This document shows, piece after piece, positions 21,720-64,000 of a stretch of 64,000 bases of DNA. The notes below the pieces were generated by a model, which saw only the letters and a program-made list of their open reading frames with translations, searched no databases and had not been told where the DNA came from. This stretch comes from a virus (taxonomy: Duplodnaviria; Caudoviricetes): IMG/VR virus record IMGVR_UViG_3300017722_003538, positions 1-64,000 of that record, one strand, 5' to 3'. The position numbers and the translations under genes are program-made. The first letter of the stretch is position 1. Every line of letters starts with the position of its first letter.

Positions 21720-23012
21720 ATGAATAATCTAAATGAATCTAGTATTTTGCAGAATGCCCTTGTAGGCGTTGAATTTGAATTTTACTCAAATTTCAGTGCT
21801 GAAGATACTGCAAAAAAACTTGCAAAATTACTTGGCAAAAAAATTCACGTTGAGGATAAATCACATAGTGATTTTGAAGTAACCAAAGATGAATTTAAAA
21901 TAGAACCTGATATGTCAGGTGGTGCTAAACTTCTTGAGTTGGTTACTGGAGCCCTTCCATATACCGCAGCCCGATTAATGATAATTAACGTTTGTAAGTG
22001 GATTGAAGAGAATGGATATACAAATGACAGGTCTTCGATACATTTAAATCTTTCATTTGATAAATCAAAAATTGAAAACAAATATCGTATCTCTAAAATG
22101 AACGTTCTTAAATTCATTTTAGATTTTAATGAGGAACAGGTCTTTAAATTCTTTCCTAAAAGAGAAAACTCAGCCTACGCAAAATCGATTAAATTTGTCT
22201 TGCCAAAAGAGGACACTTACTTTTTTGATGGAAAACATATCAATCAACAGAATTTTATTTACCCTGATACAAAATACTACGGGATAAATTTTGACAAGAG
22301 ACATAAAAATTATCTAGAATTCCGATATATTGGAGGAAAGGATTGGGAAAAGAAAACAACTACAATTCTTTATTTAGTTGATCGTTTCCTACTTCAATTA
22401 TGGAAATCTACCGAAGATACAAACTTTACGGAATTAAATGCAATTGAATTAAAAAAGATAGTTGCAGGCAATCAAAGAATAATCGACGCTAGAAGGGACT
22501 GGAAAACAATTAAAGATAATTGGAAAAACGTTAAGTTTACGATAGACATGAACGACGACCCTAGAGTGGTTGACATGTACTGGAGTTCAGTTAAGGAGAG
22601 AGTGATGAGATTATTTACGCACGGAGACCTTAGTAAAGGACATATCAATTATGATTCTGACGCGGGTCGGATTCAAGTAAATGGAGGTCGTCTAGAATAT
22701 TGTGTTGACCTTAGAGGATATGAATTTGTAAGTTGTTTCTTACGAGGAGAATTTACCGAATGTGATATGTATGGATGCGACGTTAATGGCTCCGATATTC
22801 ATTATTGTAATTTCTATCAGTCAACTCAGCTTACTAGTTCCAAATTAGACGGTTCATATGTTCATGGTACATGTACCGCAAATGATTGTTACGTATATGG
22901 AAAAGGAACTTTTAAAGGAACAATGAATGGAGGAATCTTTAGAGAGGGTTCATTCGATAAAAAACTGGCTAAATTTAATGATGTTGAAATTGTTAAATCT
23001 AGAGCAATATAA
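21720..23012 (+). CDS. putative amidoligase (COOH-NH2 ligase-like) with C-terminal beta-helix-like repeats
   Basis: GVEFE, EPD.S, ELVT, SSIHLN, KYYGIN, LEFR motif series; C-terminus has short G/C-rich repeats. Confidence 0.7.
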   Translation: MNNLNESSILQNALVGVEFEFYSNFSAEDTAKKLAKLLGKKIHVEDKSHSDFEVTKDEFKIEPDMSGGAKLLELVTGALPYTAARLMIINVCKWIEENGYTNDRSSIHLNLSFDKSKIENKYRISKMNVLKFILDFNEEQVFKFFPKRENSAYAKSIKFVLPKEDTYFFDGKHINQQNFIYPDTKYYGINFDKRHKNYLEFRYIGGKDWEKKTTTILYLVDRFLLQLWKSTEDTNFTELNAIELKKIVAGNQRIIDARRDWKTIKDNWKNVKFTIDMNDDPRVVDMYWSSVKERVMRLFTHGDLSKGHINYDSDAGRIQVNGGRLEYCVDLRGYEFVSCFLRGEFTECDMYGCDVNGSDIHYCNFYQSTQLTSSKLDGSYVHGTCTANDCYVYGKGTFKGTMNGGIFREGSFDKKLAKFNDVEIVKSRAI

Positions 23013-35684: not shown

Positions 35685-38600
35685 ATGGCTATAATTAACG
35701 AAAGCGCTGTAAACAATTCAATAGATAATAAATCTTTTGCCTTATTAAGAACAAATCCAAAGTTAACAAGTAATATAAAGTTACTTGTTAACTCAAAGGG
35801 TGACCTGTTTTTAAGTTCTTTTAGGGCAAATAAAGAACTTTCTAAAATTGAGTATCAAAAATACGATGTTAAATCTTCAGGAATATATTCTATTGACATT
35901 GCAAATTTTTATAAACAACTTCCACTAACACAAAGATACGAAACTCTTAGAGCCTCTTCAGACGTTACCCTATTTTCTGATTATGAATTTCAATATGAGG
36001 ATCAGTATCAGTATGGAGCCATTCAAAACGTTACCAAATTATATGATGAGCAATATAAAATATTTGCTCCAATTTGGCTTGAAAAAAATGTACCAACTAA
36101 ATTCATAGTTTACAGAATTGAAGACGTTGATTTCAAGACCGACTATACTGAAGATACAGTTGGACAAAATTCTAGGATTTTAGAACTTCTTAAAAATGCA
36201 ACAATAATTAAGACGTTTGATTTAGGTAAATTTTCAAAAATTGGAGAGTACTTAAATACACATGTTAACGATAAAAGATTTCCAAACTCATTAATTACAG
36301 TAAATTTTAAAGAGGGTTCACAGTCAACTTTTAATGGTATTGACTGTGCTAATGGTGGATTTGTTACAAGAACAGAACAGTTAGACAAAGATTATATTCA
36401 AATTGATTATCCAGAAATTTTTAGCAACGAAACTATTACAAACGGATTTGAAAGAAATGGTATTGTCTCTGCTAATATAGTTAATTTAGAATTCTTATTT
36501 GATGATTATACGGCAGAGAACTATAAAATTTATAGATACTTTGGTATTTATGCAGATGATATTGATGAAGGAAACTTTGGATCTGTTGGACTTGATAATA
36601 GTGGAAATTTGAGTATTGAATATAATAGTTATAGAACCCTTTATGACCTATCACAATCTACAACACCACTAGTTGACATCAATATGTTTCCTGGAACTGA
36701 CCAATTTCAAATTCCAACACTACAATATCTTAAAGACAAATCTGGTAATTTTTGTAATGTTAAAAATACATCTACTAAATTAATTGACGCCGGAGACCCT
36801 TTATTAAATATACCGGAAATATGGTCTTACAAGTTTTTGATATCACCAAATAGTAATTCTGCCGAATCTTTTATTGGATTTGCAAAAAATGGTAAAAAAA
36901 TAACGGCAGATTTAAGAAACCCAAGTCCTAAAGGATTTCTTAAAGTTACCGTAAAGGATGTTCCAAGTGCTAATGATAGAATATTTATCGGAGACCGGAC
37001 AGAACTTCAAATTTCGCAATACAATCTAGGAGACTATTTAGTTATTGCAGACCCTTCTTTACCCGCTGCAAGGGCAGATGGTAATAGGTTTTCAAATCTG
37101 GGAAGTTTGCAACAAATAGCAATTGCTCTTGCATCTGCTATTAATAATGGAGAAATCATAACGTATAAAACAAAGGTTGTAGATACTTCGATAATTATCG
37201 AAGAGATTGTTAATGGAAATAAGAGAAGACAAACTGCTTTTGGAATATTTAACGCAAATTTAGTCGATTGGATCGAAGTTTCTAATGGTGAATTTAATGA
37301 CATTGGCTTAAATAGTGTTGATGGAAAAATTAACGTTAGTATTGTTGGAGCATGTTCTATATTAGGAGGTATTTGGAAAGAAACAGGAATGTATAATGGC
37401 AAAAAAGAATACTCTAAACTAACACAACCATCTAGAAAAATTTCATACGATGGAAATAAATGGGTCTTATGGGACGGTCCATTAACTCCTAAATATTTTG
37501 AAAATTTAACAGTTCCACTTGATACTAATCCCCCAACAACAGGCTGGGCTGGTGTTACATGTGTAGGAGCTTCGATGTCCCTATCTTTTATAGTTAATAA
37601 TTTTGTAAACAATTGGAACATTTGGACTACAATCGCTGGATCAGTCGAAGGCCAATCTATTCTTGTTAAATCTTCAGAAATTGGAAATGTACAGGTTGGA
37701 GAATATTTAAAACAAAAAGATTCTGACTACTTTGTTAGAATTATAGAAATTGACCAAGACCCGTTTGACACAGATTATTATAGAGTTATTTTAGATAGAC
37801 CTACAAAACTTTCAAATGACAAAGTATTTGAAGTTTACAATGAATATAAAACGGTTCACGGTAGATTTGCAGCTTATGACTTTAAAGATTTTGATTTTGA
37901 TTTTTACTCTACTAGAAATTCAAATTTAGGAGACCTTGTTTATGATAAAAAATTAGACAATACTGACGTAGATGCTCAATCGTTTTATTCAGGTCTTAGA
38001 GATATTTTATCCGGTGAAACTTCAAAGGCAGTTGTTAAAACTGAACTATTAAATGAATATGACCGTCTTAAAGAAAATAGTCTTAAAGAAACTTCTCTTT
38101 TAAGTAGAGTGGTTCCTACTATCTGTAAATATGAACTTAAAAATTCATCTAACGCTAGAAATTTACCTTATGTTTTAAATGTGAATGAGGCATTTGGAGA
38201 TGACAATTTATCGCCGAACATAGAATTAGATTCAACTAGAAATATTGAATTCTTAAACATGGAGCACTTTCATATAAATAAGATTCCAGTTAATGTATTA
38301 GGAGTAAGAAGAGACTTAAATAATTATTTAGATTTTGCAAATGATGGAGGGTTAACCGTTTACAAGTTAAAAAGAACTGATTTTAATTTCTTTGATAAAC
38401 ATTTTAATTGGACCGGATATTTTGACCCGTACACATTGTCTGGTGCAGTATCTGGAAAATGGCACGATAACTCTTTTAAAAGATTATGGTCTAAATTTGA
38501 TAGTGGTAATTTTGAAAAAAATTCATCAACTGTTTTCAGAGGTCTTCGATATGTGTTCCAAAAAAGAAAAGAACTTATTAATGAAATTCCAACCGAATTT

Positions 38601-40439
38601 TTAAAAGGAATAGACATTAGTGATTATAAGTTCGGTGCGTATCTTTCTTATAATACAAATGATAGTATTAAATCAAATTCAATAGTGTTTAACTGCATTA
38701 AAAATGACAAGTTTAAATTTATTTGTGTTAATGTTGAGTTAAATGTAGTTGAAAATGATATAGGAGAAGATGAATTGTCTAGATACCTTTTATACACATT
38801 GACTGATTTAACATTAGGTTTAAATGGTGATGGGACTCCTAACGTTATAGATACTATAATTCCATTTCGTATTGATTTTGTTGGAGCAGCTAATGCCGCA
38901 GATGCAGTCAATCCGGATGAACCTTTTACTATTAACGCTTCAACTTTAAATGCAGTAGGAACTGCTAAATTTACAGATTTTGTTAAAAGAGATTCTCTTG
39001 GAGAATATTCTTGGATACATTTTTCTCTTTCTGCAGTAACATATGCCGTAAAAGTCGTCGATGTTATTGATGACACTTCAATACTTGTGAGTGGATGGCC
39101 CTATGAGTATGATACGGTAAGCAATCTCCCTCTTGTGGGTAGATTATCCCCAGGTTCAATGGCATTAGTTGCTGAAACTGGACCTTTCTATTATGCACTG
39201 GGAGGTGCCAATGAATTTGCAAACTTATTGGATTCAATAAGTGCATATAGATATTCTAAAAGATTTAATTCATTTGGACAGGTAAATTACATTACAGTTG
39301 CTGAAGACGGAACAGAATCAAAGAATGACTATGTTCTTTCTATAGAATCAGGTGTTGATGTTGTTAAACCCTCTATTGTTCAGCCTGCTGCGGACCCAGA
39401 AAGACCAAAAGCATATAGATTATCTTCAAATCAAATCGGAAACGTTATAGAAGACAGAGAAGACGGTGGATATGCTACTATTTTGAGAAGAATGAATGGA
39501 GACTATAACCCAATTTTTAATAACATTGTAACATTTTCCGATATTAATTCAGATAAAAAATTATTGTTAAATTCGGCAGATCCTGCATTAGTAACATATA
39601 ATCAATTAAACGGTAGGGGAATCGCATTTGATTCTTTTAAAGAAAATACAAACAACTATGGTTTTATTAATAACTATTTTTATCATAAAGTTAATGAACA
39701 AGACTCGAAAAACATATTAAAACTTTCGCAGACAACTGATAAATTACCATTGTACCCTTTAATTGGTGAGATAGCAATCGATAAAAAGGACATTAATGTT
39801 TTTAAATCTAAGTATTCAAAGGACTATTTTACAAGAGCCCTAAGTGCTGGAGAATCTGAAACAACAAATGGAACCCTAAGTCCAGTAGAAAAGAAAACTT
39901 TTATGACATCAACAATCATGAAGGTCCGAGATACGTATGACATAACGAAGTTTGATAGTACTCAAGAGGCTTCAATTGAAGCACTTGATAAAATAAGATT
40001 TGCACAGTCTAATAAAACAGCGATACATTGGATCGATGAAGATTCTCAGATTATTGCAGATTTTTATTTACCAACGGCAATACTAAATGAATTAGTTGAA
40101 GATGGAATTGAACAAAAATTTAGAACATACGTTAATCCTTCTACATCTTATGGAGACAAATCATCCTTAAAAGATGACCTTCAAATATATTCAAAAGCAA
40201 ATATATCTCCTCGTTTTATTATTGACGCTATTAAAATCTACGGAATTGAAGGCAAAGGGTTAGAAACTGGTTTTGTATCAGTTACCGAAACTTCTCAATT
40301 AACCGCTGATAATTATAGAGAGGTAACTAATTTTAACATTCAAAGTTATCAAAATGATGGTTTGAGTTTTAGACTAATATATAATAAACAGGGTAAATAC
40401 TCATACAACTTTAAAGTACACGTTAAAATACAAGCATAA
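35685..40439 (+). CDS. large virion structural protein
   Basis: 1584 aa; GATATATA at 35652 and TATAAATA at 35661 upstream. Confidence 0.55.
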   Translation: MAIINESAVNNSIDNKSFALLRTNPKLTSNIKLLVNSKGDLFLSSFRANKELSKIEYQKYDVKSSGIYSIDIANFYKQLPLTQRYETLRASSDVTLFSDYEFQYEDQYQYGAIQNVTKLYDEQYKIFAPIWLEKNVPTKFIVYRIEDVDFKTDYTEDTVGQNSRILELLKNATIIKTFDLGKFSKIGEYLNTHVNDKRFPNSLITVNFKEGSQSTFNGIDCANGGFVTRTEQLDKDYIQIDYPEIFSNETITNGFERNGIVSANIVNLEFLFDDYTAENYKIYRYFGIYADDIDEGNFGSVGLDNSGNLSIEYNSYRTLYDLSQSTTPLVDINMFPGTDQFQIPTLQYLKDKSGNFCNVKNTSTKLIDAGDPLLNIPEIWSYKFLISPNSNSAESFIGFAKNGKKITADLRNPSPKGFLKVTVKDVPSANDRIFIGDRTELQISQYNLGDYLVIADPSLPAARADGNRFSNLGSLQQIAIALASAINNGEIITYKTKVVDTSIIIEEIVNGNKRRQTAFGIFNANLVDWIEVSNGEFNDIGLNSVDGKINVSIVGACSILGGIWKETGMYNGKKEYSKLTQPSRKISYDGNKWVLWDGPLTPKYFENLTVPLDTNPPTTGWAGVTCVGASMSLSFIVNNFVNNWNIWTTIAGSVEGQSILVKSSEIGNVQVGEYLKQKDSDYFVRIIEIDQDPFDTDYYRVILDRPTKLSNDKVFEVYNEYKTVHGRFAAYDFKDFDFDFYSTRNSNLGDLVYDKKLDNTDVDAQSFYSGLRDILSGETSKAVVKTELLNEYDRLKENSLKETSLLSRVVPTICKYELKNSSNARNLPYVLNVNEAFGDDNLSPNIELDSTRNIEFLNMEHFHINKIPVNVLGVRRDLNNYLDFANDGGLTVYKLKRTDFNFFDKHFNWTGYFDPYTLSGAVSGKWHDNSFKRLWSKFDSGNFEKNSSTVFRGLRYVFQKRKELINEIPTEFLKGIDISDYKFGAYLSYNTNDSIKSNSIVFNCIKNDKFKFICVNVELNVVENDIGEDELSRYLLYTLTDLTLGLNGDGTPNVIDTIIPFRIDFVGAANAADAVNPDEPFTINASTLNAVGTAKFTDFVKRDSLGEYSWIHFSLSAVTYAVKVVDVIDDTSILVSGWPYEYDTVSNLPLVGRLSPGSMALVAETGPFYYALGGANEFANLLDSISAYRYSKRFNSFGQVNYITVAEDGTESKNDYVLSIESGVDVVKPSIVQPAADPERPKAYRLSSNQIGNVIEDREDGGYATILRRMNGDYNPIFNNIVTFSDINSDKKLLLNSADPALVTYNQLNGRGIAFDSFKENTNNYGFINNYFYHKVNEQDSKNILKLSQTTDKLPLYPLIGEIAIDKKDINVFKSKYSKDYFTRALSAGESETTNGTLSPVEKKTFMTSTIMKVRDTYDITKFDSTQEASIEALDKIRFAQSNKTAIHWIDEDSQIIADFYLPTAILNELVEDGIEQKFRTYVNPSTSYGDKSSLKDDLQIYSKANISPRFIIDAIKIYGIEGKGLETGFVSVTETSQLTADNYREVTNFNIQSYQNDGLSFRLIYNKQGKYSYNFKVHVKIQA

Positions 40440-50809: not shown

Positions 50810-51178
50810 ATGAAAACATTTTTAGATTACATAGCAGAACAGAACATAACTGAAAATGAGTTACAAGTACTGAACGAATCCCTTCAAACTGAATGGACCG
50901 AAGAACTTGAAGCGAAAGTTGACGCTGCTCTAGAACAATTTTCAAATACTTATAAAAATCCTGATGGAACCTATAATATCCAAGCGTTCAACGAAGAGAT
51001 TACTAACGAAGGTGTTTTAGGTAGTATCTTTGGAGGACTTGCAGGTTTTGCTCTTGGTAAAACTATTGGGAAAACTATTGCCAATATCTTGGGAATCCAA
51101 AGTGGTATAATGTATGACATGTTAACCTCAAGACTAGTAGGAGCCGCTCTTGGTTCTTCTCTTGGTAGTAGATTATAA
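50810..51178 (+). CDS. capsid-targeted protein with glycine-zipper C-terminus
   Basis: MKTFLDYIAE leader; GVLGSIFGGLAGFALG...VGAALGSSLG. Confidence 0.65.
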   Translation: MKTFLDYIAEQNITENELQVLNESLQTEWTEELEAKVDAALEQFSNTYKNPDGTYNIQAFNEEITNEGVLGSIFGGLAGFALGKTIGKTIANILGIQSGIMYDMLTSRLVGAALGSSLGSRL

Positions 51179-56391: not shown

Positions 56392-59300
56392 ATGGCACAA
56401 GTAAATAAAATTTCTTCATTTAAGAGTTTTACTGAAGTTAAGAATCAGGAAGCTACATTGAAACTAAGAGAAACAAACAATGCAAAAAGACAGGAAACTG
56501 TTGGTAAAATTGGAGCAATCCTTGACGAAATGGGTTTAACTTCTCTATCTGAATTGGATGAAGTTAAAAAACAGGCACTAATCAACAAAATGTTTGGAAA
56601 TGTTTCAGAAGATGAAGCAGAAGATATTGAAGATGAAATTAATAAATTAGGAGAACCTAAAAAACTAGAAGAGAGAAATGCATTCTTAGGAGCTAGAGCA
56701 AAGGCTATTGAAGAGGACAAAACTGAATTTGAGTTTAACGGTAAAACCTACAAAGTAAAAGTAAACGAAGGTAATGCTTTCGGAGACGCTGTTAGAAAAG
56801 CTAAAGAGGCTGGAGAGAAAGAATTTGAATTCGATGGTAAAACTTACAAAGTTGAGGAAGGTAATGCCTTTGGAGACGCTGTTAGAAAAGCAAAAGAGGA
56901 TGGAGAAGAGGAATTTGAATTTGACGGTAAAACTTTTAAAGTTGAAGAGGCTTTAAATGCCATAAATGAAGGTCGAGTTAAAGCGGCTACCCTACTACAA
57001 GAATTAATTGACGGAAATACTTCTAGAGCAGAAGGTATTAAAATGTCAAAAGACTTAGCTGAACATTATTTATATTGGTTAAGAACTTCTCCTTATGGCA
57101 AGAAAAATGCTGACCTACCTCTTTACATGTTAATCAAAGCAAGTTTTGTTTGGGGAATTGAAAGACAATTAGACCCTAAATTAAAAGTAGAACTTGAAGC
57201 CCTAAAAGGTAGTATTAAAGAATCAGTAGATTTTATTAATGAGGCTCGTACAATTGCTAAAATTCAATATGACTGGTCTAAACTGACAACTACAATGGCT
57301 GCAACTGCACAAAATTAGAAAACTGCCGAAGGTCCTGCTAAAGAAATGTTACTTGGAAAATTAAAAGAGATGACAGCTCAAAAGAAAGGATTAGAAACTG
57401 AATTGGATGCTGCTATCGCTGATAAAGACAAAGACATCGAATTGGTAGTTTCTGAAGCATTCTTTAGATTACCAAAAGATGTTATTGGAAATGAGTTATA
57501 TATGGCAACCCAAAATTTAGCTAACCTATATGGTTCAATTTTAGCTGGAAATGATGTTGATGCTGGTGTTATTGATACAGTTATTAAAGCACTTACCACT
57601 GTTAAAAAATCTGTTAAGAAATTTAATAACAAAGAAGAGGTTTTAGGAACTGTTTACGAAGGAGAAGTTAATGAAGCCGATATGACTAAATTCTACGATG
57701 GTTTTAAAGTTCTTGACGACAAAACCGGAAAGATGACTAAATTTCATTATGTCAAAGGTAGAAAAAATACAGATGTAGAAAACGAAGCTATTGCCAAGTT
57801 AATGAAGGCAACTGGATCATCGAGAGCAAATTTTGGAGTTCATGGATTTGTTAAAAAGGGTGAATGGAATATGGATAAAACTCCAGTATTTGAATCTACA
57901 GTTAATGAAGCTGACTCTGTAAAATCAGAAGCAATATCTAGACTTGCAGATTTTTTCCGTATAAGTCCTTACGCTCTTTCAAAATTTAATTTTGATGGAA
58001 ACGATAATATTAAAGAACTTACCAAAGTTTTAAACTCTACGTCAGATGAAGGTACTAAACTTTATTACGACACATGCATTAAATTAGCCAAAAAAGATTT
58101 AGGAATTAATGAATCTACAGTTAATGAAGCTGAAAAATTCAAAAGTACTCAAGATTTTGAAGAGTTCTTAGAGGAAATCGATGGTATGCCAGAGGTTAGA
58201 ATCAAAAGAATCATGGGTAAAGATTACATCGATACTCCAGGAGGTTTTAGAGATGAAGCAGATGATTACGATAATGACATAGTAGAGTATACTCTTTCTA
58301 ACATGGGTCGTAAAGATTTTGAAGCACTTAAAGCATGGTGGGAAAACAATGTTCAAGAATCTTTAACTGAAGGAATGATTAGCCCTAAAATGGCAAATAG
58401 TTTTAAAATTGGAAACAAAATTAAAACTCAAAAAGATACTTACACAATAACTGGATTCGGTTCAAAGACTGGGGCAACCAGAGATTTTGAAGCTGAAAAT
58501 GAAAACGGAGAACAATTTAACTTGAGAGTTTCATTAAAAGGCGCTACTGGAATTCAAGTTGCTGTTGGAGCTAGAAATTTAAACTTTCCAGAACAACAGG
58601 AAATGTTAGAGTCAGTAGTTACTGAAGCAGCCGCTAAACAATTCGATGTTGACTTCACGTCGATGGTTAGAAATATTAAATCAGGATATGGTTGGATCGA
58701 TCCAGAATACGTTGCAGATACTTGGGAAAATTCAAGTGACTCTATCGATTTTGAATTAGTTAAAGGAGAAATCTACAAAAGATTAATAGCAGCTGGTTTA
58801 TTAGCCTACGCTGATGATGAGGACGAAGAAGTAGCAGGAAAATATGTTAAATCATTAAAAGAACTTGGAATTAAAGAATCTTTTGTTAATGAAGCAGTTT
58901 CAAACCCAAGTGAATTAACTAGCTTTATTAATAAGAATGAAAGTCATTTTGCAGCATTTTTAAAACCTAAAAAAATAAACACTTCAGTTGAAGGTAATAA
59001 AGCAATTATCAAACCTGCATCTGGTAGTTTTACTATAACTGTTGATTTTGACAAATCAACTATAGATAGCACAGGAAAACCAAAAAACCCAGAATCAACT
59101 TCATACGTTGAAATAATAGAGTACATCAAAGGAAACACTAAATTTAAAGTTCTTAATGAGTCTGCAGAAGTAAATGAAGCTGAAGTTAAATCTGACGATG
59201 AATTTAAAGAATATGCAATGACTGTCTTGAAAAAAGCATTTGGAGATGACTTTGATGAGGCTAAAGCTACCGAAGTAGTTGATGGAATTCTTAAAAAATG

Positions 59301-59619
59301 TGGAGATGATTATGGTGCATGTGTTGGAATGTTAACAAGTTCATTAGGAGAATCAGTAGTTACTGAAGCATTTGATGCAAACTACTGGGAAGATTACCAA
59401 GAAGGTGCTCAAAAAACAAAAAACCCAACTGCTATGGTAATCATGCAAGACGTACAAGCTGCAGTTGAAGAGTGGAATGATAATAATGAAAACGGAGTTG
59501 AAAATGAAGTAACTCCGGCTGGAGAAAAGAAAGTCCTGAAACTTGCAAAAGAATTTGTTAAAGCAAAAGGATATATCTCATTCGATATTATTGATGCAAT
59601 GATCGCTCAGGAATCTTAA
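56392..59619 (+). CDS. modular internal-head polyprotein interrupted by an in-frame TAG (57316-57318)
   Basis: ORFs 56392-57318 and 57346-59619 are in the same frame with a single TAG between them. Leader KISSFKSFTE; recurring ES..VNEA-type linkers. Confidence 0.7.
56671..56946 (+). repeat. three tandem 30-32 aa coding repeats
   Basis: E(G/R)NAF..A..KA.E....EFEF.GKT(Y/F)KV x3; units start at 56671, 56767 and 56857 (96 and 90 bp periods). Confidence 0.9.
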
Positions 59620-59636
59620 AAATAATCTAAATAAAT

Positions 59637-59681
59637 AATACCTGATGTTTTACCATGTCAGGTATTTTTATTATATTTACA
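59637..59681 (+). promoter_or_regulatory. hairpin terminator overlapping an early promoter
   Basis: AATACCTGA...TCAGGTATT stem; TTTT 59648; TATATTTACA 59672-59681; GTTTTACCATGTCAGG is identical to 634-649. Confidence 0.7.
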
Positions 59682-59683
59682 CT

Positions 59684-59956
59684 ATGAAACATATTAACCT
59701 ATTTGAAGAGTTTTTAAATGAGTCTGACTATGCAGAGGCCAAAGCTGACCTTTCATTAAAGGCATCTGATTTACTCCAAAAAAGAAAGGAACTTAGAAAT
59801 AAAGTTAATGACCTAAACCAAAATGCGGATGACCCAAAGTCTGCAATTCAAGCCCAAATAGCAACCCTTAAAATGGCAGCCCTTGACCTTGATAATCAAA
59901 AAAATAGAATCAACGCAAACATACTTGATTTAAGCAGAAAATTAGAAAGTTTATAA
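59684..59956 (+). CDS. coiled-coil protein with capsid-targeting-like leader
   Basis: Start revised to MKHINLFEEFLNES at 59684. Confidence 0.7.
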   Translation: MKHINLFEEFLNESDYAEAKADLSLKASDLLQKRKELRNKVNDLNQNADDPKSAIQAQIATLKMAALDLDNQKNRINANILDLSRKLESL

Positions 59957-59958
59957 CA

Positions 59959-60507
59959 ATGAAACACATCCAATTATTCGAACAATTTATTAATGAGGCA
60001 AAGGTTGACTACGCTAAATATGTAAAAGACACATCTAAAAAAATATTTGCAAGAGGTGGTAACGGTCAAAATGTACTTGATTACCTGGTAGACCTTGGAA
60101 AATATATTAATAGTACGATTGACCCAAAGGCAGACCAATGGTATGGTCCACAAACACCTTCACTATTTCAAGAATTGGTTAATGGTATGGGAATTGATGA
60201 TATCGAGCATAATAATGTTTCAGGTAAGAAAAGTAGTAAAAAACCAGAAGCATTCAGAGGTGCAAGCGATTTAATTGCTGTTACAAATGACGCAATTAAC
60301 CGTGCAAAATCCAACGGAGGAAACGATGCTGGATGGGGTAAAGCCGCTTTAGAACTTGCTGGACACCTTCAAGCATATAAAGTAGGTGCTGGTAATCCAG
60401 GTCCTGGAGAAGACGGATTCTATACTGCTCCAACCTTAAGTACATTCACAAGATTGGTTGATGATATTGCCATGGAAAATATCAAAAAGAATAGAGTAAC
60501 ACAATAA
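59959..60507 (+). CDS. hypothetical protein with capsid-targeting-like leader
   Basis: MKHIQLFEQFINEA leader; weak internal duplication (WYGPQTPSLFQELV / FYTAPTLSTFTRLV). Confidence 0.7.
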   Translation: MKHIQLFEQFINEAKVDYAKYVKDTSKKIFARGGNGQNVLDYLVDLGKYINSTIDPKADQWYGPQTPSLFQELVNGMGIDDIEHNNVSGKKSSKKPEAFRGASDLIAVTNDAINRAKSNGGNDAGWGKAALELAGHLQAYKVGAGNPGPGEDGFYTAPTLSTFTRLVDDIAMENIKKNRVTQ

Positions 60508-60514
60508 TAAAACT

Positions 60515-61804
60515 ATGAAAACAAGAATCCTTAATTTTAACCGTTTCATAACTGAAAAGTATGAAGTTAAATTGAATGAGCAGTTATTATTAGAAGGTGG
60601 AGCAGCTGGACATATGTCCCATCCATTCGATAATAATGACCTAACATTTGGAGACTTTAAGAATATGATTATTGGTGGACTTCAAGGAGAATTAAACTTC
60701 GAAGAGGAGCCTACTGAAAAAACCGATGGTCAAAACGTATTTGCAACAATTCAAAATGGCGAGGTTAAATTTGCCAGAAATAAAACTGAGTTGCAAAACC
60801 CTATGAGTCTTAAGGATTTTCAAAATAAATTTGAGGGACATGCAAGTAAACTGGTACAAGATACTTTTCAATTTGCAGCCGCTGATTTAGCAACCCTGCT
60901 TATAAAGTTACCCGCTAAAACACAAGAGGAAGTGTTCCAGAATGGGCTGAACTTCATGAACATGGAGTTGATATATTCTGCTAACCCTAATGTAATTCAC
61001 TATGATGTTGATGTAATTCAATTCCATGGTATTAAGAAGACTGATGGGGCTGGAAATATAGTTGGAGATGACAATAGTGCGGCAAAAAGTGTTAGTGGAG
61101 TACTTAAATCCTTAAATGCTAATGTCGGAAAAACATTTACAATTATCCCTCCTCAAGTTATTAAACTACAAAAAGACATAAACTTTGAAGAGAATCAGAC
61201 CAAATTCTTAGGAAAACTTGAAGCTCTTAAAAATCGTTATAATTTAACCGATGCTGATGCTGTTGCTCGCTACCATGAAATGTGGTGGAGAGAACAAATT
61301 GAAACTATATTCGGTGACCTACCACAAAATATCAAAGAGGGTCTATTATTAAGATGGGCATATGACGATAAGAAAACCCTAAACCTTCGTTCATTGGACA
61401 AAGAATTAACTCCAGCTCAAGCTGAAGCAGTTAAGAAATTTGACAAAGAGGATGTTAAAAAGAAATTCAAAGAAAATATTCGACCATTTGAAGACCTTTT
61501 CTTAGAATTAGGAAGTGTTATCTTAAAGAATGCTAGTAACTTTGTTGCTGCTTCACCAGACAAAGAAATGCAAAGGTTACATAATGAAATCCGAACCGAA
61601 GCCGATAAGATTAAACTTAATGGAGATGTAACTCAAATTGAGAAAGTTGCAAAAGAACTTGACCGACTTGAAAGAATTGGAGGAATCCAATCTATTATAC
61701 CGACTGAAGGTATTGTATTTTCATACAAAGGACACATGTACAAATTAACAGGAACATTCGCTGCTATTAATCAGTTGATGGGAATTATAAAATACGGAAG
61801 ATAA
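60515..61804 (+). CDS. ligase-like nucleotidyltransferase-fold protein (KxDG motif) with leader
   Basis: EGGAAGHMSHPFD, TEKTDGQN (motif I), MELIY, EGIVF (motif IV), YKLTG (motif V). Confidence 0.65.
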   Translation: MKTRILNFNRFITEKYEVKLNEQLLLEGGAAGHMSHPFDNNDLTFGDFKNMIIGGLQGELNFEEEPTEKTDGQNVFATIQNGEVKFARNKTELQNPMSLKDFQNKFEGHASKLVQDTFQFAAADLATLLIKLPAKTQEEVFQNGLNFMNMELIYSANPNVIHYDVDVIQFHGIKKTDGAGNIVGDDNSAAKSVSGVLKSLNANVGKTFTIIPPQVIKLQKDINFEENQTKFLGKLEALKNRYNLTDADAVARYHEMWWREQIETIFGDLPQNIKEGLLLRWAYDDKKTLNLRSLDKELTPAQAEAVKKFDKEDVKKKFKENIRPFEDLFLELGSVILKNASNFVAASPDKEMQRLHNEIRTEADKIKLNGDVTQIEKVAKELDRLERIGGIQSIIPTEGIVFSYKGHMYKLTGTFAAINQLMGIIKYGR

Positions 61805-61805
61805 A

Positions 61806-62174
61806 ATGAAACACTTTAAACTATACGAGGAATTCGTAAATGAGTCTATAATTAACGAAGGCATAAGTATGCCAAAAGGATATAATCCATCTAAAGATGT
61901 TAAAGATGGTCCTGAAATTTGCAAATCTATAATAGAAATAGTTAATAAATATGCAAAACTAAATCCTATGAAATTCAAAAAATTGATTAAGAAATCTACT
62001 GAAGACTATCCGTACATTGAACACACTGCAACAGAAGCATCTATCATTGATTTTTATATAATCTTAGCTGATTATGTTGTATTAGAAACAGATACTTCTA
62101 AAGAGGATAAATTAAAAATGGAAAAAGAAATAACAGACTTAATCAATAAAAAAACTGGGATAAACTTTTATTAA
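61806..62174 (+). CDS. hypothetical protein with capsid-targeting-like leader
   Basis: MKHFKLYEEFVNESIINEG. Confidence 0.7.
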   Translation: MKHFKLYEEFVNESIINEGISMPKGYNPSKDVKDGPEICKSIIEIVNKYAKLNPMKFKKLIKKSTEDYPYIEHTATEASIIDFYIILADYVVLETDTSKEDKLKMEKEITDLINKKTGINFY

Positions 62175-62187
62175 AACAATATATAAT

Positions 62188-62508
62188 ATGAAACACATTA
62201 AACTATTTGAAGAGCATATAAACGAGGCTATCGATAAACCATCATTAGATTCTCAAACAGGATTAATTTATTATTTTGATATACCATTCACATCTGAAGA
62301 TATTGAGGAAATATTAAGTTCTTCTAAAACTGTGTTGAACGCAAAATTTACACCTAATAAACAATTTGAAATTCAACCAATGATTTTTATCAAAGATAAA
62401 GTTAATGGTGGAGAACACACTTTTAGTGTTTCACAAATTGGTATATTAGGTTCATTTTACGAAAAGAATAAAAACAACACAGCATCCCGAAAAGATTTTA
62501 CCAATTAA
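62188..62508 (+). CDS. hypothetical protein with capsid-targeting-like leader
   Basis: MKHIKLFEEHINEA; AATATATA at 62178-62185. Confidence 0.7.
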   Translation: MKHIKLFEEHINEAIDKPSLDSQTGLIYYFDIPFTSEDIEEILSSSKTVLNAKFTPNKQFEIQPMIFIKDKVNGGEHTFSVSQIGILGSFYEKNKNNTASRKDFTN

Positions 62509-62519
62509 AAAACAAAGAG

Positions 62520-64000
62520 ATGGCATTACAAAAATTAAGAGAGTACTTTAACGAAACCAATAGAGAAACCTTTATTGATATGTTAAAAAATAGAGTGTTA
62601 GTGACTGAGAAAGTTGCAGCACCTACATTTCTTGTTAAAAGAAATCTTGATGGGTTTGAATATTTTAAATCTTCAAATTCAGACAAATTAAATCTAGTTG
62701 ACCGAACTGTTATCTCCCTATATGAGATTGCAATCAACTACATGCAAAGTTTGCCAAGCTCTACTAAAAACCAAATGCCACTTGATTGGAGATTTGGTTT
62801 TGAATACCTACCAGAAGTTAATGTATCTAAAATTAAATACGGAAAGACCCCAAAAAATAACCTAATCCTAACACATATTCAACAATTAGGAGAAGCAGAC
62901 AGGGTTAAGAAAACCATAAATGATCCGGTAATCCTAAATAAATGGGCAAAAATTCTGGATGTTCAACAACCAAGCGTAATTTTTGATGGCTATTTATCTC
63001 AATTACAGAGAGATGAACTTCTTGAATTACTTGGAATGAGCGATAGAGAATTTAGCGAATCATTTGATTATTTAGAGGAAACAAAAGACAAGCTTAGTTT
63101 TACCAGTAAAATAGTTAAACTTTTTAATTCAAGCGCGTTTGAAACTGCCTTAAATTCAGATATTGATGATGAATTTGATGGATTGGTTGTTAATTTTATT
63201 GACGAAAAATCGATGAAGTCTTTTAAATTAGAGGATTTTACCAGAAAAACTGGAATGGATAACTCTTCAAGCCACATGTACCAAATTGCAGTGACTGACT
63301 TTTTAGAATTTGCAACTCAATTTAATATCGACGAAATCCAACTCGAAGACGAGAGAGCAGACTACAGATATCTTGAAATAATGTCGATAATGTTTAATGA
63401 ATATGTTGACAAGAATTCCTCAAAATATATTGGAGTTAATTTTGAAAGCGCTGAATTTTCATCAGCACAATCTTTTAAATTAAATACAAAATACATTCTT
63501 GACGAAAAGACCCTAAAATATACATCAAACGATATTTTAGCAGAGTTACTAAAAATGGTTTTAAGTTCTTTTAGAAAGAAGAGAACCAAAACAAGCGACC
63601 TAATCGACGAGGACACTATGAATCGTATGAATGAAATTATCGAAAAAATCAATCAGAAAATATTTGTTGAAAGTACTGACGAGAATGCAATATATGATTA
63701 CCAAAATTTTATGTTGCGCGACAGGATTAAAACTTCAGTCAACCTAAATGAGGCACTTAAACTGACTCATGTTGAACAAGGAAAACAGCCAGTAAATATG
63801 TTTGTTGGAAGATTTCAGCCCTTTACATTAGGACATGCTAAAGTTTTAGAGACTATTCATAAAGAAAATGGCTATCCAGTAGTTGTATTTCTAGTTAAAG
63901 CAAAAACCAAAAAGAAGGGTGATGAATTTAGCAGACCATACGATGAGAAGACCCAAATTGAAATGTTTAAAAACGTTCAAAAACAATACACATTCCTTAA
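62520..64000 (+). CDS. degenerate RNA-ligase-like domain fused to an HxGH-type cytidylyl/adenylyltransferase (3'-partial)
   Basis: Not in the ORF track because it runs off the window. My translation: MALQKLREYFNE...VTEKVAAP...FGFEY...LNEA...MFVGRFQPFTLGH (63807-63836). Confidence 0.75.
   Translation, partial: MALQKLREYFNETNRETFIDMLKNRVLVTEKVAAPTFLVKRNLDGFEYFKSSNSDKLNLVDRTVISLYEIAINYMQSLPSSTKNQMPLDWRFGFEYLPEVNVSKIKYGKTPKNNLILTHIQQLGEADRVKKTINDPVILNKWAKILDVQQPSVIFDGYLSQLQRDELLELLGMSDREFSESFDYLEETKDKLSFTSKIVKLFNSSAFETALNSDIDDEFDGLVVNFIDEKSMKSFKLEDFTRKTGMDNSSSHMYQIAVTDFLEFATQFNIDEIQLEDERADYRYLEIMSIMFNEYVDKNSSKYIGVNFESAEFSSAQSFKLNTKYILDEKTLKYTSNDILAELLKMVLSSFRKKRTKTSDLIDEDTMNRMNEIIEKINQKIFVESTDENAIYDYQNFMLRDRIKTSVNLNEALKLTHVEQGKQPVNMFVGRFQPFTLGHAKVLETIHKENGYPVVVFLVKAKTKKKGDEFSRPYDEKTQIEMFKNVQKQYTFL

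Follow-up and report, generated by a model that had tools for sequence, protein, structure and literature searches.

A modular phage polyprotein with prohead-protease-type linkers, predicted to load exchangeable small proteins into the capsid

Among described concepts, two come closest to the locus reported here: the internal proteins of phage T4, which carry a capsid targeting sequence, and the class of polyvalent proteins that Iyer, Burroughs, Anand, de Souza and Aravind described in 2017 for phages and conjugative elements (available parts of PMC5512222). In T4, according to the available passages of PMC9026906, the prohead protease gp21 cleaves after the Glu of an L/I-x-E site, gp22 is cut at a Glu-Ala bond and propeptides of 7–65 residues are removed from virion proteins, while targeting to the head needs no more than the first 10 residues of the internal protein IPIII, of which residues 4 and 7 act in targeting and residues 8 and 10 in processing. 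T4 IpII and IpIII start MKTYQEFIAE/A and gp24 starts MAKINELLRE/S (read from AF158101; here and below a slash marks the position after Glu). Here we describe a gene in the first 64 kb (64,000 nucleotides, hereafter the window) of the 93,070-bp IMG/VR virus record IMGVR_UViG_3300017722_003538, which encodes a polyprotein of 11 small modules joined by linkers of prohead-protease type. The reading that we favour, and hold to be reasonably probable, is that of a head-cargo polyprotein whose modules would be loaded into the capsid together, cut apart by a T4-type protease and probably ejected with the DNA.

A preliminary description of this DNA, made from its letters, had divided the frame into a leader, three short repeats and 11 mutually unrelated segments of 63–95 amino acids (aa), each delimited by a linker, and this anatomy proved right apart from an in-frame amber codon that had been overlooked. 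In the frame that begins at 56392, all 11 linker coordinates fall on the first base of a Glu codon, which is followed by Ala (nine linkers) or Gly (two). The modules (M1 to M11) measure 91, 71, 73, 78, 73, 81, 85, 89, 95, 63 and 83 aa, have masses of 6.8–10.4 kDa and are unrelated to one another, the best pairwise BLASTP match having an E value of 0.30 after linker trimming. The three repeats are genuine (29–33 aa each, residues 94–186), with the consensus GNAFxxAxxKAKxxGxxEFEFxGKTYKV, and are modelled as a helix plus a beta-hairpin; the chain ends in QES. Homologues came from a word-indexed search in which 492 of 7,997 scored candidates reached E ≤ 0.001, and all counts per 120 homologues cover the 120 matches listed out of these 492. 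The features of the gene are as follows, with structural confidence given as the predicted local distance difference test score (pLDDT).

56392 to 59619, + strand: polyprotein frame, 1,075 codons plus stop; its TAG interruption is confined to this record
56392 to 56670, + strand: conserved N-terminal leader region, residues 1–93, in 114 of 120 homologues
56671 to 56970, + strand: the three repeats (residues 94–186) plus ALNAINE; each repeat ends V-x-E before Gly or Ala
56971 to 57243, + strand: module M1, 91 aa, helical, pLDDT 67–89; 74 of 120 homologues
57244 to 57456, + strand: module M2, 71 aa, helical, pLDDT about 88–90; 116 of 120 homologues; holds the TAG
57316 to 57318, + strand: in-frame TAG; TGG (Trp) in contigs of 4 of 4 public runs and in homologues
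57457 to 57675, + strand: module M3, 73 aa; 78 of 120 homologues
57676 to 57909, + strand: module M4, 78 aa, strand-strand-helix-strand, pLDDT 86–95 with its own alignment; variable, 20 of 120 homologues
57910 to 58128, + strand: module M5, 73 aa, helical, pLDDT 89–95 with its own alignment; 7 of 120 homologues
58129 to 58371, + strand: module M6, 81 aa, helical, net charge −12; 87 of 120 homologues, order relative to M8 varies
58372 to 58626, + strand: module M7, 85 aa, beta-rich; 5 of 120 homologues
58627 to 58893, + strand: module M8, 89 aa; 98 of 120 homologues
58894 to 59178, + strand: module M9, 95 aa; 4 of 120 homologues
59179 to 59367, + strand: module M10, 63 aa, three helices, pLDDT 85–91; 120 of 120 homologues
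59368 to 59616, + strand: module M11, 83 aa, pLDDT 80–96; 108 of 120 homologues; ends QES

Owing to the amber codon at 57316–57318, translation table 11 splits the frame into open reading frames (ORFs) of 308 and 757 aa, the second starting from an ATG at 57346, so that the locus could also be read as two separate genes, or the TAG as recoded or read through. That alternative is scarcely credible. Contigs were aligned to the gene from freshwater metagenomes, comprising three DNA runs and one RNA-library run; base 57317, an A in the window, is a G in every contig covering it and at full depth in each run (29.4/29.4, 78.2/78.2, 88/88 and 8.86/8.86), and these contigs otherwise differ from the window by 0–1 letters. 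The database protein P0001 is 1,075 aa long and 100% identical, with Trp at codon 309, a residue also found in P0002, P0003, P0005 and P0011, and the frame is uninterrupted in the polyprotein ORFs of related loci. TAG is moreover an ordinary terminator of 7 of the 92 ORFs, and no tRNA gene lies in the window. On these grounds we rejected recoding, read-through and the two-gene reading. Because all four runs carry the G, and P0001 and homologues the Trp, the TAG is, as judged from these sequences, private to this record, representing a rare variant or an assembly error. The linkers and modules thus lie where the preliminary description had placed them, in a frame that is not open in the window itself, and the natural product is a single 1,075-aa protein of 120 kDa with a pI of 4.8. 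RNA-library contigs span 26 of 30 bins of the gene; we do not count this as evidence of transcription because such libraries can contain DNA.

The linker peptide is concentrated in this gene. The motif [VILF][NTS]E before Ala, Gly or Ser occurs 14 times within 1,065 aa of the polyprotein frame; the contig's remaining ORFs, 28,257 aa in all, have 40 copies, a roughly ninefold lower density. Of these 40, 16 fall among the first 25 residues of their protein, and a second multi-site protein at 64416–66746 accounts for 6. Across the homologues, 237 distinct junctions upstream of window-type modules have Glu at P1 in 202 cases and within one position of it in 233. Ala (57%) or Gly (22%) predominates at P1', Asn (50%) or Thr (17%) at P2 and Val (61%), Ile (11%) or Leu (6%) at P3, with Glu-Ser at P6-P5 (67% and 59%). 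A 73-row alignment averages 22% identity per column, yet E929 never varies in it and E284, E355 and E992 each reach conservation of 90% or more.

The modules between these linkers are shuffled among relatives, and a cassette-like architecture is well supported by comparison of the sequences. A library composed of the window's 13 segments and each uncovered stretch of at least 40 aa from the 120 homologues contained 52 module families, which covered a median 98% of each protein and were arranged in 73 distinct architectures. The leader, M2, M10 and M11 constitute a conserved frame, M10 being the only part common to more distant versions of 460–620 aa (L028–L061). In the variable middle, M6, M8 and M4 appear in differing orders and many modules are seen once, and in most homologues the repeat region is swapped for related variants (N5, N16, N14). 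Nearly all of the 39 new modules, which were bounded by absence of similarity and not by the linker motif, end in an ES..[NT]E-type linker (judged by eye).

Breakpoints independent of the motif also fall at the linkers. A phmmer search over 1.84 billion cluster representatives matched the polyprotein to 1,360 clusters (50% identity) at E ≤ 0.001, 755 at ≤ 1e-10 and 178 at ≤ 1e-30. In 145 newer, more distant cluster representatives, phmmer domains of P0001 had 188 of 319 internal starts between −10 and +3 of a P1' position (14.6% expected) and 159 of 300 internal ends at most 6 residues from a P1 position (13.6% expected); we attach no probability to these counts because relatedness inflates them. 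This test is cleaner than one based on the ends of BLAST high-scoring segment pairs, a noisy measure in which 167 of 313 internal ends (19.5% expected) and 45 of 117 distinct positions lay at most 8 aa from a linker. Among the public runs, a contig of run X4 skips 58363–58617, an in-frame loss of 255 nt or 85 codons that removes M7 plus one linker-equivalent, and a joint in run X1 has both sides within the linkers flanking M9. Of the 17 loose contig ends listed, 6 lie in linkers and continue into other sequence (57667, 57670, 58610, 58873 and, twice, 59169), and the remaining 11 are inside modules or too short for judgement. The preliminary description had proposed beforehand that homologous loci be compared for module gain, loss or reordering at the linkers, and the 73 architectures and the contig lacking one module bore it out; its interpretation is to that extent, in its architectural part, partly supported.

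The linker also recurs as the end of a leader on other genes. The polyprotein begins MAQVNKISSFKSFTE, resembling a leader, MKHIxLFEEFxNE followed by Ala, Gly, Ser or Lys, that occurs in 12 of 91 genes on the contig, nine of which form an island directly downstream of the polyprotein that is syntenic in relatives. Downstream of the polyprotein, the window holds the following:

59684 to 59956, + strand: stand-alone gene starting MKHINLFEEFLNE/S; ATG 59684 lies inside a longer ORF, 59645–59956
59959 to 60507, + strand: stand-alone gene starting MKHIQLFEQFINE/A; two tandem domains homologous to module N6
60515 to 62508, + strand: three further leader-bearing genes (429, 122 and 106 aa)
62520 to 64000, + strand: leader-bearing 623-aa gene starting MALQKLREYFNE/T, cytidylyltransferase-like; extends to 64391, past the window end

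Seven window modules (M1, M2, M3, M5, M6, M8 and M9) stand first behind such a leader in other proteins: M1 in P0242 and P0177, M2 in P0134, M3 in P0198, M6 in P0140, M9 in P0171 and M8 in P0262, P0248, P0253, P0226 and P0249, all with their first residue in the same register as in the array, and M5 in P0130, P0235 and P0255, offset by 3–5 residues. In 16 of 26 listed leader cases the projected module start comes directly after Glu; 3 of the 26 are probably N-terminal fragments. A cut after Glu would therefore leave a module with the same mature N-terminus whether it is encoded alone or in the array, and comparison gives good support to the view that linker, leader and protease-type site are equivalent. 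Conversely, module N6, internal in P0005, P0042 and P0070, is homologous to both halves of the 59959–60507 gene (41% and 39% identity, E 3e-16 and 2e-13), and other multi-module proteins of related loci share M2, M5, M6, N5, N7 and N25 with the polyprotein family.

Several observations concern neighbouring leader-type genes. Just beyond the window end lies the second multi-site protein, of 776 aa (contig 64416–66746, L068:2416–4743), which starts MNFNEFLNE/G and has five further motif sites; relatives have versions of 701 to 982 aa, and at some loci its counterpart holds the shared modules just named. A 122-aa gene at 50810–51178, without a Pfam family, starts MKTFLDYIAE/Q, the contig's closest match to the T4 IpII/IpIII leader, and occupies the same place in 6 of 13 related loci examined. 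At the end of the island lies a leaderless 280-aa gene (contig 68124–68966, L068:6124–6963) whose N-terminal domain is DUF3008 (PF11450, E 5e-12). The 623-aa leader-bearing protein has a PF01467 cytidylyltransferase-like domain (E 1.5e-7), and a 363-aa protein (L069:839–1927) starts MIPIRLFEEFVYKE and has weak ATP-grasp matches; if the leader signifies head packaging, such enzymes would be packaged too.

Structure prediction describes the polyprotein as a string of separately folding domains and not a single fold, because the overall predicted template modelling score (pTM) is low and confidence dips at the linkers. The full-length AlphaFold2 (AF2) model (1,075 aa, alignment A2 with 72 homologues) has a mean pLDDT of 63.4 and a pTM of 0.25, with M1, M2, M6, M8, M10, M11 and the three repeat units as confident separate domains, and segments of pLDDT below 50 at, or at most 2 residues from, 10 of the 11 linkers. 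Permuted modules could not be aligned in one MAFFT pass in several trials; in the full-length alignment M4 and M7 had no aligned rows and M5 and M9 very few, so that their low confidence there is uninformative. With an alignment of its own (23 and 10 well-aligned rows), M4-M5 was modelled at a mean pLDDT of 87.5, the score dropping to 66 in the FESTVNE/A block between the two; at the trailing linker it is 57 and 32. In all, M1, M2, M4, M5, M6, M8, M10 and M11 are predicted as compact helical or alpha/beta domains with pLDDT 70–96. One continuous structure, which the preliminary description had said would refute it, is not what the models predict.

These folds bear on the unlikely alternative that the polyprotein serves in the prohead core or scaffold, as T4 gp22, gp67 and gp68 do, and is cut there at many sites, its modules being filler and the pieces expelled to make room for DNA. 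T4 core proteins are indeed cut by gp21 into multiple fragments that mostly depart from the head (available passages of PMC9026906), the near-universal leader, M2 and M10 are what would be expected of a core gene, and the acidic composition fits as well. The predicted modules are nevertheless compact folded domains of 7–10 kDa, unlike coiled coils or short peptides; they are conserved whole, pass from gene to gene and also stand alone behind a leader, none of which is expected of filler, and relatives possess a separate 646-aa protease-scaffold ORF.

The link of the head-cargo reading to a prohead protease and capsid is drawn through these relatives, because the window's own contig lacks a protease or capsid gene. 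PF03420 (Peptidase_S77, T4 gp21) is found in three of three relatives' records with the polyprotein (45.6–46.6 bits, cut-off 27), the ORF being 646–647 aa long in two of them and truncated to 240 aa by the end of the contig in the third, and a gp23-type capsid gene is present in two of the three (E about 1e-42). Relative G003 has, in order, portal, a leader-bearing 113-aa gene starting MKIIKTFEQFTSS, the protease-scaffold ORF and the capsid protein. The motif recurs in the last two: RVNE/AYGFVNE/G just past the protease domain, and MANLINE/AEIR as the capsid N-terminus. The preliminary description's assignment of the linkers to a prohead protease thereby gains indirect support from sequence, in that the linker equals the end of stand-alone leaders and the motif stands on the capsid protein and behind the S77 domain. 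Because the relatives' capsid protein starts in this way, the starts MAIINE/S and MNNLNE/S of two ORFs in the structural region of the window, 35685–40439 (1,584 aa) and 21720–23012 (430 aa), may likewise be short propeptides on other virion proteins. A single 646-aa ORF of G003 (L062/L066) joins the S77 domain to a long scaffold-like region that is helical and rich in repeats, whereas T4 has protease and scaffold as separate genes, 21 and 22.

The same motif matches make it highly improbable that processing takes place outside the head, by another protease or sorting system, with products that act in the infected cell. Leaders do precede enzymes as well, the cytidylyltransferase-like and ATP-grasp-like proteins described above, whose packaging is putative. 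Yet the motif fits the Glu-specific S77 rule and appears on the relatives' capsid protein and protease-scaffold ORF, and no other peptidase was seen in the loci read, none having been searched for.

At the DNA level, two pairs of linkers encoding the same peptide are nearly identical: 57886–57909 and 58105–58128 share 23 identical bases, and 58606–58626 and 59347–59367 are identical at 20 of 21. Such shared stretches could, from their length, serve as recombination microhomology. At silent sites of the linkers, 127 of 182 same-residue codon pairs are identical against 91 expected from contig codon usage, a modest excess that is smaller when measured against the gene's own codon usage. Identical runs of 20–23 nt would also suit an uncleaved multidomain polyvalent protein that acts or is delivered whole, its linker a mere connector and recombination joint, and we judge this to be decidedly unlikely. 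Phage proteins with 2–15 domains are known, some of them packaged unprocessed (available parts of PMC5512222), and cleavage of the polyprotein is here a prediction from sequence. A plain connector, however, needs no invariant Glu followed by Ala or Gly, and would not be expected to recur in the same register at the leader ends of single-module genes, at a capsid N-terminus or after a protease domain.

On the head-cargo reading, the conserved N-terminal region, with a leader like the T4 capsid targeting sequence, would bring the 120-kDa precursor into the prohead core, where a gp21-type (S77) prohead protease would cut every E-S-x-V-[N/T]-E/[A/G] linker on the C-terminal side of its Glu and release about 11 small folded proteins of 7–10 kDa, the size of T4 IPI* and IPII*. 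Once freed, the modules would be retained alongside the DNA inside the head and would probably accompany it into the host. A function within the core is probable for the conserved frame (leader, M1–M3, M10 and M11), and the shuffled middle modules would be exchangeable cargo. The repeated linker would also act as a recombination joint at which modules are added, removed, reordered and exchanged, including with stand-alone leader genes.

Several points weigh against this reading. Targeting, packaging, cleavage, retention, ejection and any function of the modules are steps that we infer. The contig of the window itself, about 34% of the genome, has no PF03420 or PF07068 match. P3 at the junctions is mostly Val, as opposed to the Leu or Ile of the T4 rule, and Val, not Ala, Gly or Ser, follows the Glu of the polyprotein's own first leader. 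Most modules are acidic or neutral, in keeping with the overall pI, unlike the basic T4 internal proteins. In the full-length model, the linker at residue 193, the exception among the 11, is not of low confidence, that at 355 lies inside a modelled helix, and the dips at 506, 660 and 745 border M4 or M7 and are uninformative because those modules had no aligned rows, the dip at 506 being confirmed in the separate M4-M5 model. Among cultured relatives the gene has no carrier: tblastn over 50,697 phage records yielded no match, and a cultured phage collection gave no DNA or protein match to the polyprotein. Finally, no module has a function recognisable by the family and fold searches.

Those searches matched no module to a family or fold in Pfam, PHROGs, PDB or the ESM Atlas. 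The polyprotein ORFs have no Pfam family, and thus no Pfam peptidase domain, and only two weak PHROGs of unknown function at E ≤ 0.01; the sole family match of the repeats is one such PHROG (phrog_22068, E 7e-4). A PDB profile search found no relative, its best match (LSm8, E 0.042) being taken as chance, and the ESM Atlas gave no usable match. At E ≤ 0.001 there was no PDB fold match for the full-length model and none for M4-M5. Four BFVD fold matches at that threshold had template modelling (TM) scores of 0.06–0.08 and are not meaningful; whole-model matches were long and of low TM (0.04–0.09), which is meaningless for a beads-on-a-string model. Neither Pfam and PHROG searches nor tblastn against the 50,697 phage records revealed sequence homology to T4 IPI, IPII, IPIII or Alt, and the T4 late-promoter word TATAAATA shows no enrichment, with 14 copies against 12.1 expected.

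The source is probably an uncultured freshwater jumbo phage with T4-type head morphogenesis. CheckV rates the 93,070-bp record 34% complete, which would put the genome at about 270 kb, and relatives reach 236 kb at 77% completeness. Of the 92 called ORFs on the contig, 91 are on the + strand, with TAA as stop in 80, TAG in 7 and TGA in 5. A UvsW-type helicase and a primase lie upstream of the polyprotein, and a gp6-like baseplate wedge gene further upstream. The relatives' capsid protein is nearest to those of an uncultured 462-kb phage (52% identity) and of Prevotella Lak phages (34–37%), and the gene or parts of it were found in at least 24 runs from 20 studies, mostly labelled as freshwater metagenomes. 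A Bacteroidota host would be consistent with the low G+C content.

More tentatively, the linker may be dual-purpose, its peptide a protease site and its DNA a recombination joint. Aquatic giant phages would then possess a cassette system of integron-like logic, in which probable counter-defence effectors are swapped among one or two polyproteins and stand-alone leader genes, are loaded at a set ratio behind a single tag and reach the host with the DNA ahead of any phage gene expression; we regard this as possible, with the odds somewhat against it. If modules are freed in the head and injected, the 1,360 clusters would represent a large, fast-evolving library of first-minute proteins, and hence a catalogue of candidate anti-defence or host-takeover proteins, each small, self-folding, singly expressible and with its exact mature N-terminus predicted. 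It would also be a natural counterpart of what engineers of T4 delivery vectors construct by hand with the capsid targeting sequence, namely a T4-type capsid loaded with several cargoes.

The preliminary description knew of no account of such a system, and in agreement with this, full-text searches of the literature (supplements of the T4, SPN3US and phiKZ proteome papers excluded) yielded no description of a phage polyprotein of head-cargo modules joined by prohead-protease sites. Compared with RNA-virus polyproteins, the locus likewise has one translation product, a predicted viral protease and short conserved sites; those viruses and their proteases are unrelated, however, their gene content and order are fixed and their products are a replication and structural set. 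Glu-specific prohead proteases also cut one chain repeatedly in T4 gp22, gp67 and gp68 and in head propeptides of phiKZ and SPN3US (available passages of PMC9026906 and PMC10052503). Those cuts destroy a scaffold or propeptide that is mostly removed, whereas the pieces between the sites here are conserved, exchangeable domains, predicted by AF2 to be compact and not the elongated coiled-coil or unstructured chain of a gp22-like protein.

Polyvalent proteins, as far as the available parts of PMC5512222 describe them, resemble the polyprotein in having many unrelated domains per polypeptide, a variable architecture, predicted travel with the DNA and proposed processing, and the 11 unrelated modules and 73 architectures seen here agree with the first two. 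They differ in their domains of known enzymatic, DNA-binding or anti-defence families and in processing proposed to be by a built-in metallopeptidase (MPTase), where the present protein has no family match and no peptidase domain, and in lacking the very small modules and regular linker, fitting a prohead protease, that are found here.

The T4 internal proteins IPI, IPII and IPIII and Alt share with the polyprotein a short N-terminal leader of the same pattern (MKTYQEFIAE/A against MKHIxLFEEFxNE/), a resemblance of pattern only to a targeting sequence of about 10–20 residues with hydrophobic-x-Glu at its end, as well as a Glu cut behind a hydrophobic P3 (here predicted) and hypervariable sequence behind a conserved tag. 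T4 IpI and IpII measure 95 and 100 aa before processing, close to the modules' 63–95 aa, and the relatives here encode a T4-type protease and capsid gene. The T4 proteins are basic and the modules mostly acidic. In T4 each internal protein has one gene and one tag, whereas here a single precursor combines up to about 14 modules and the cutting end of the tag is repeated as the linker. If the head-cargo reading is true, the logic of the T4 internal proteins would be extended from one tag for one protein to one tag for many exchangeable proteins.

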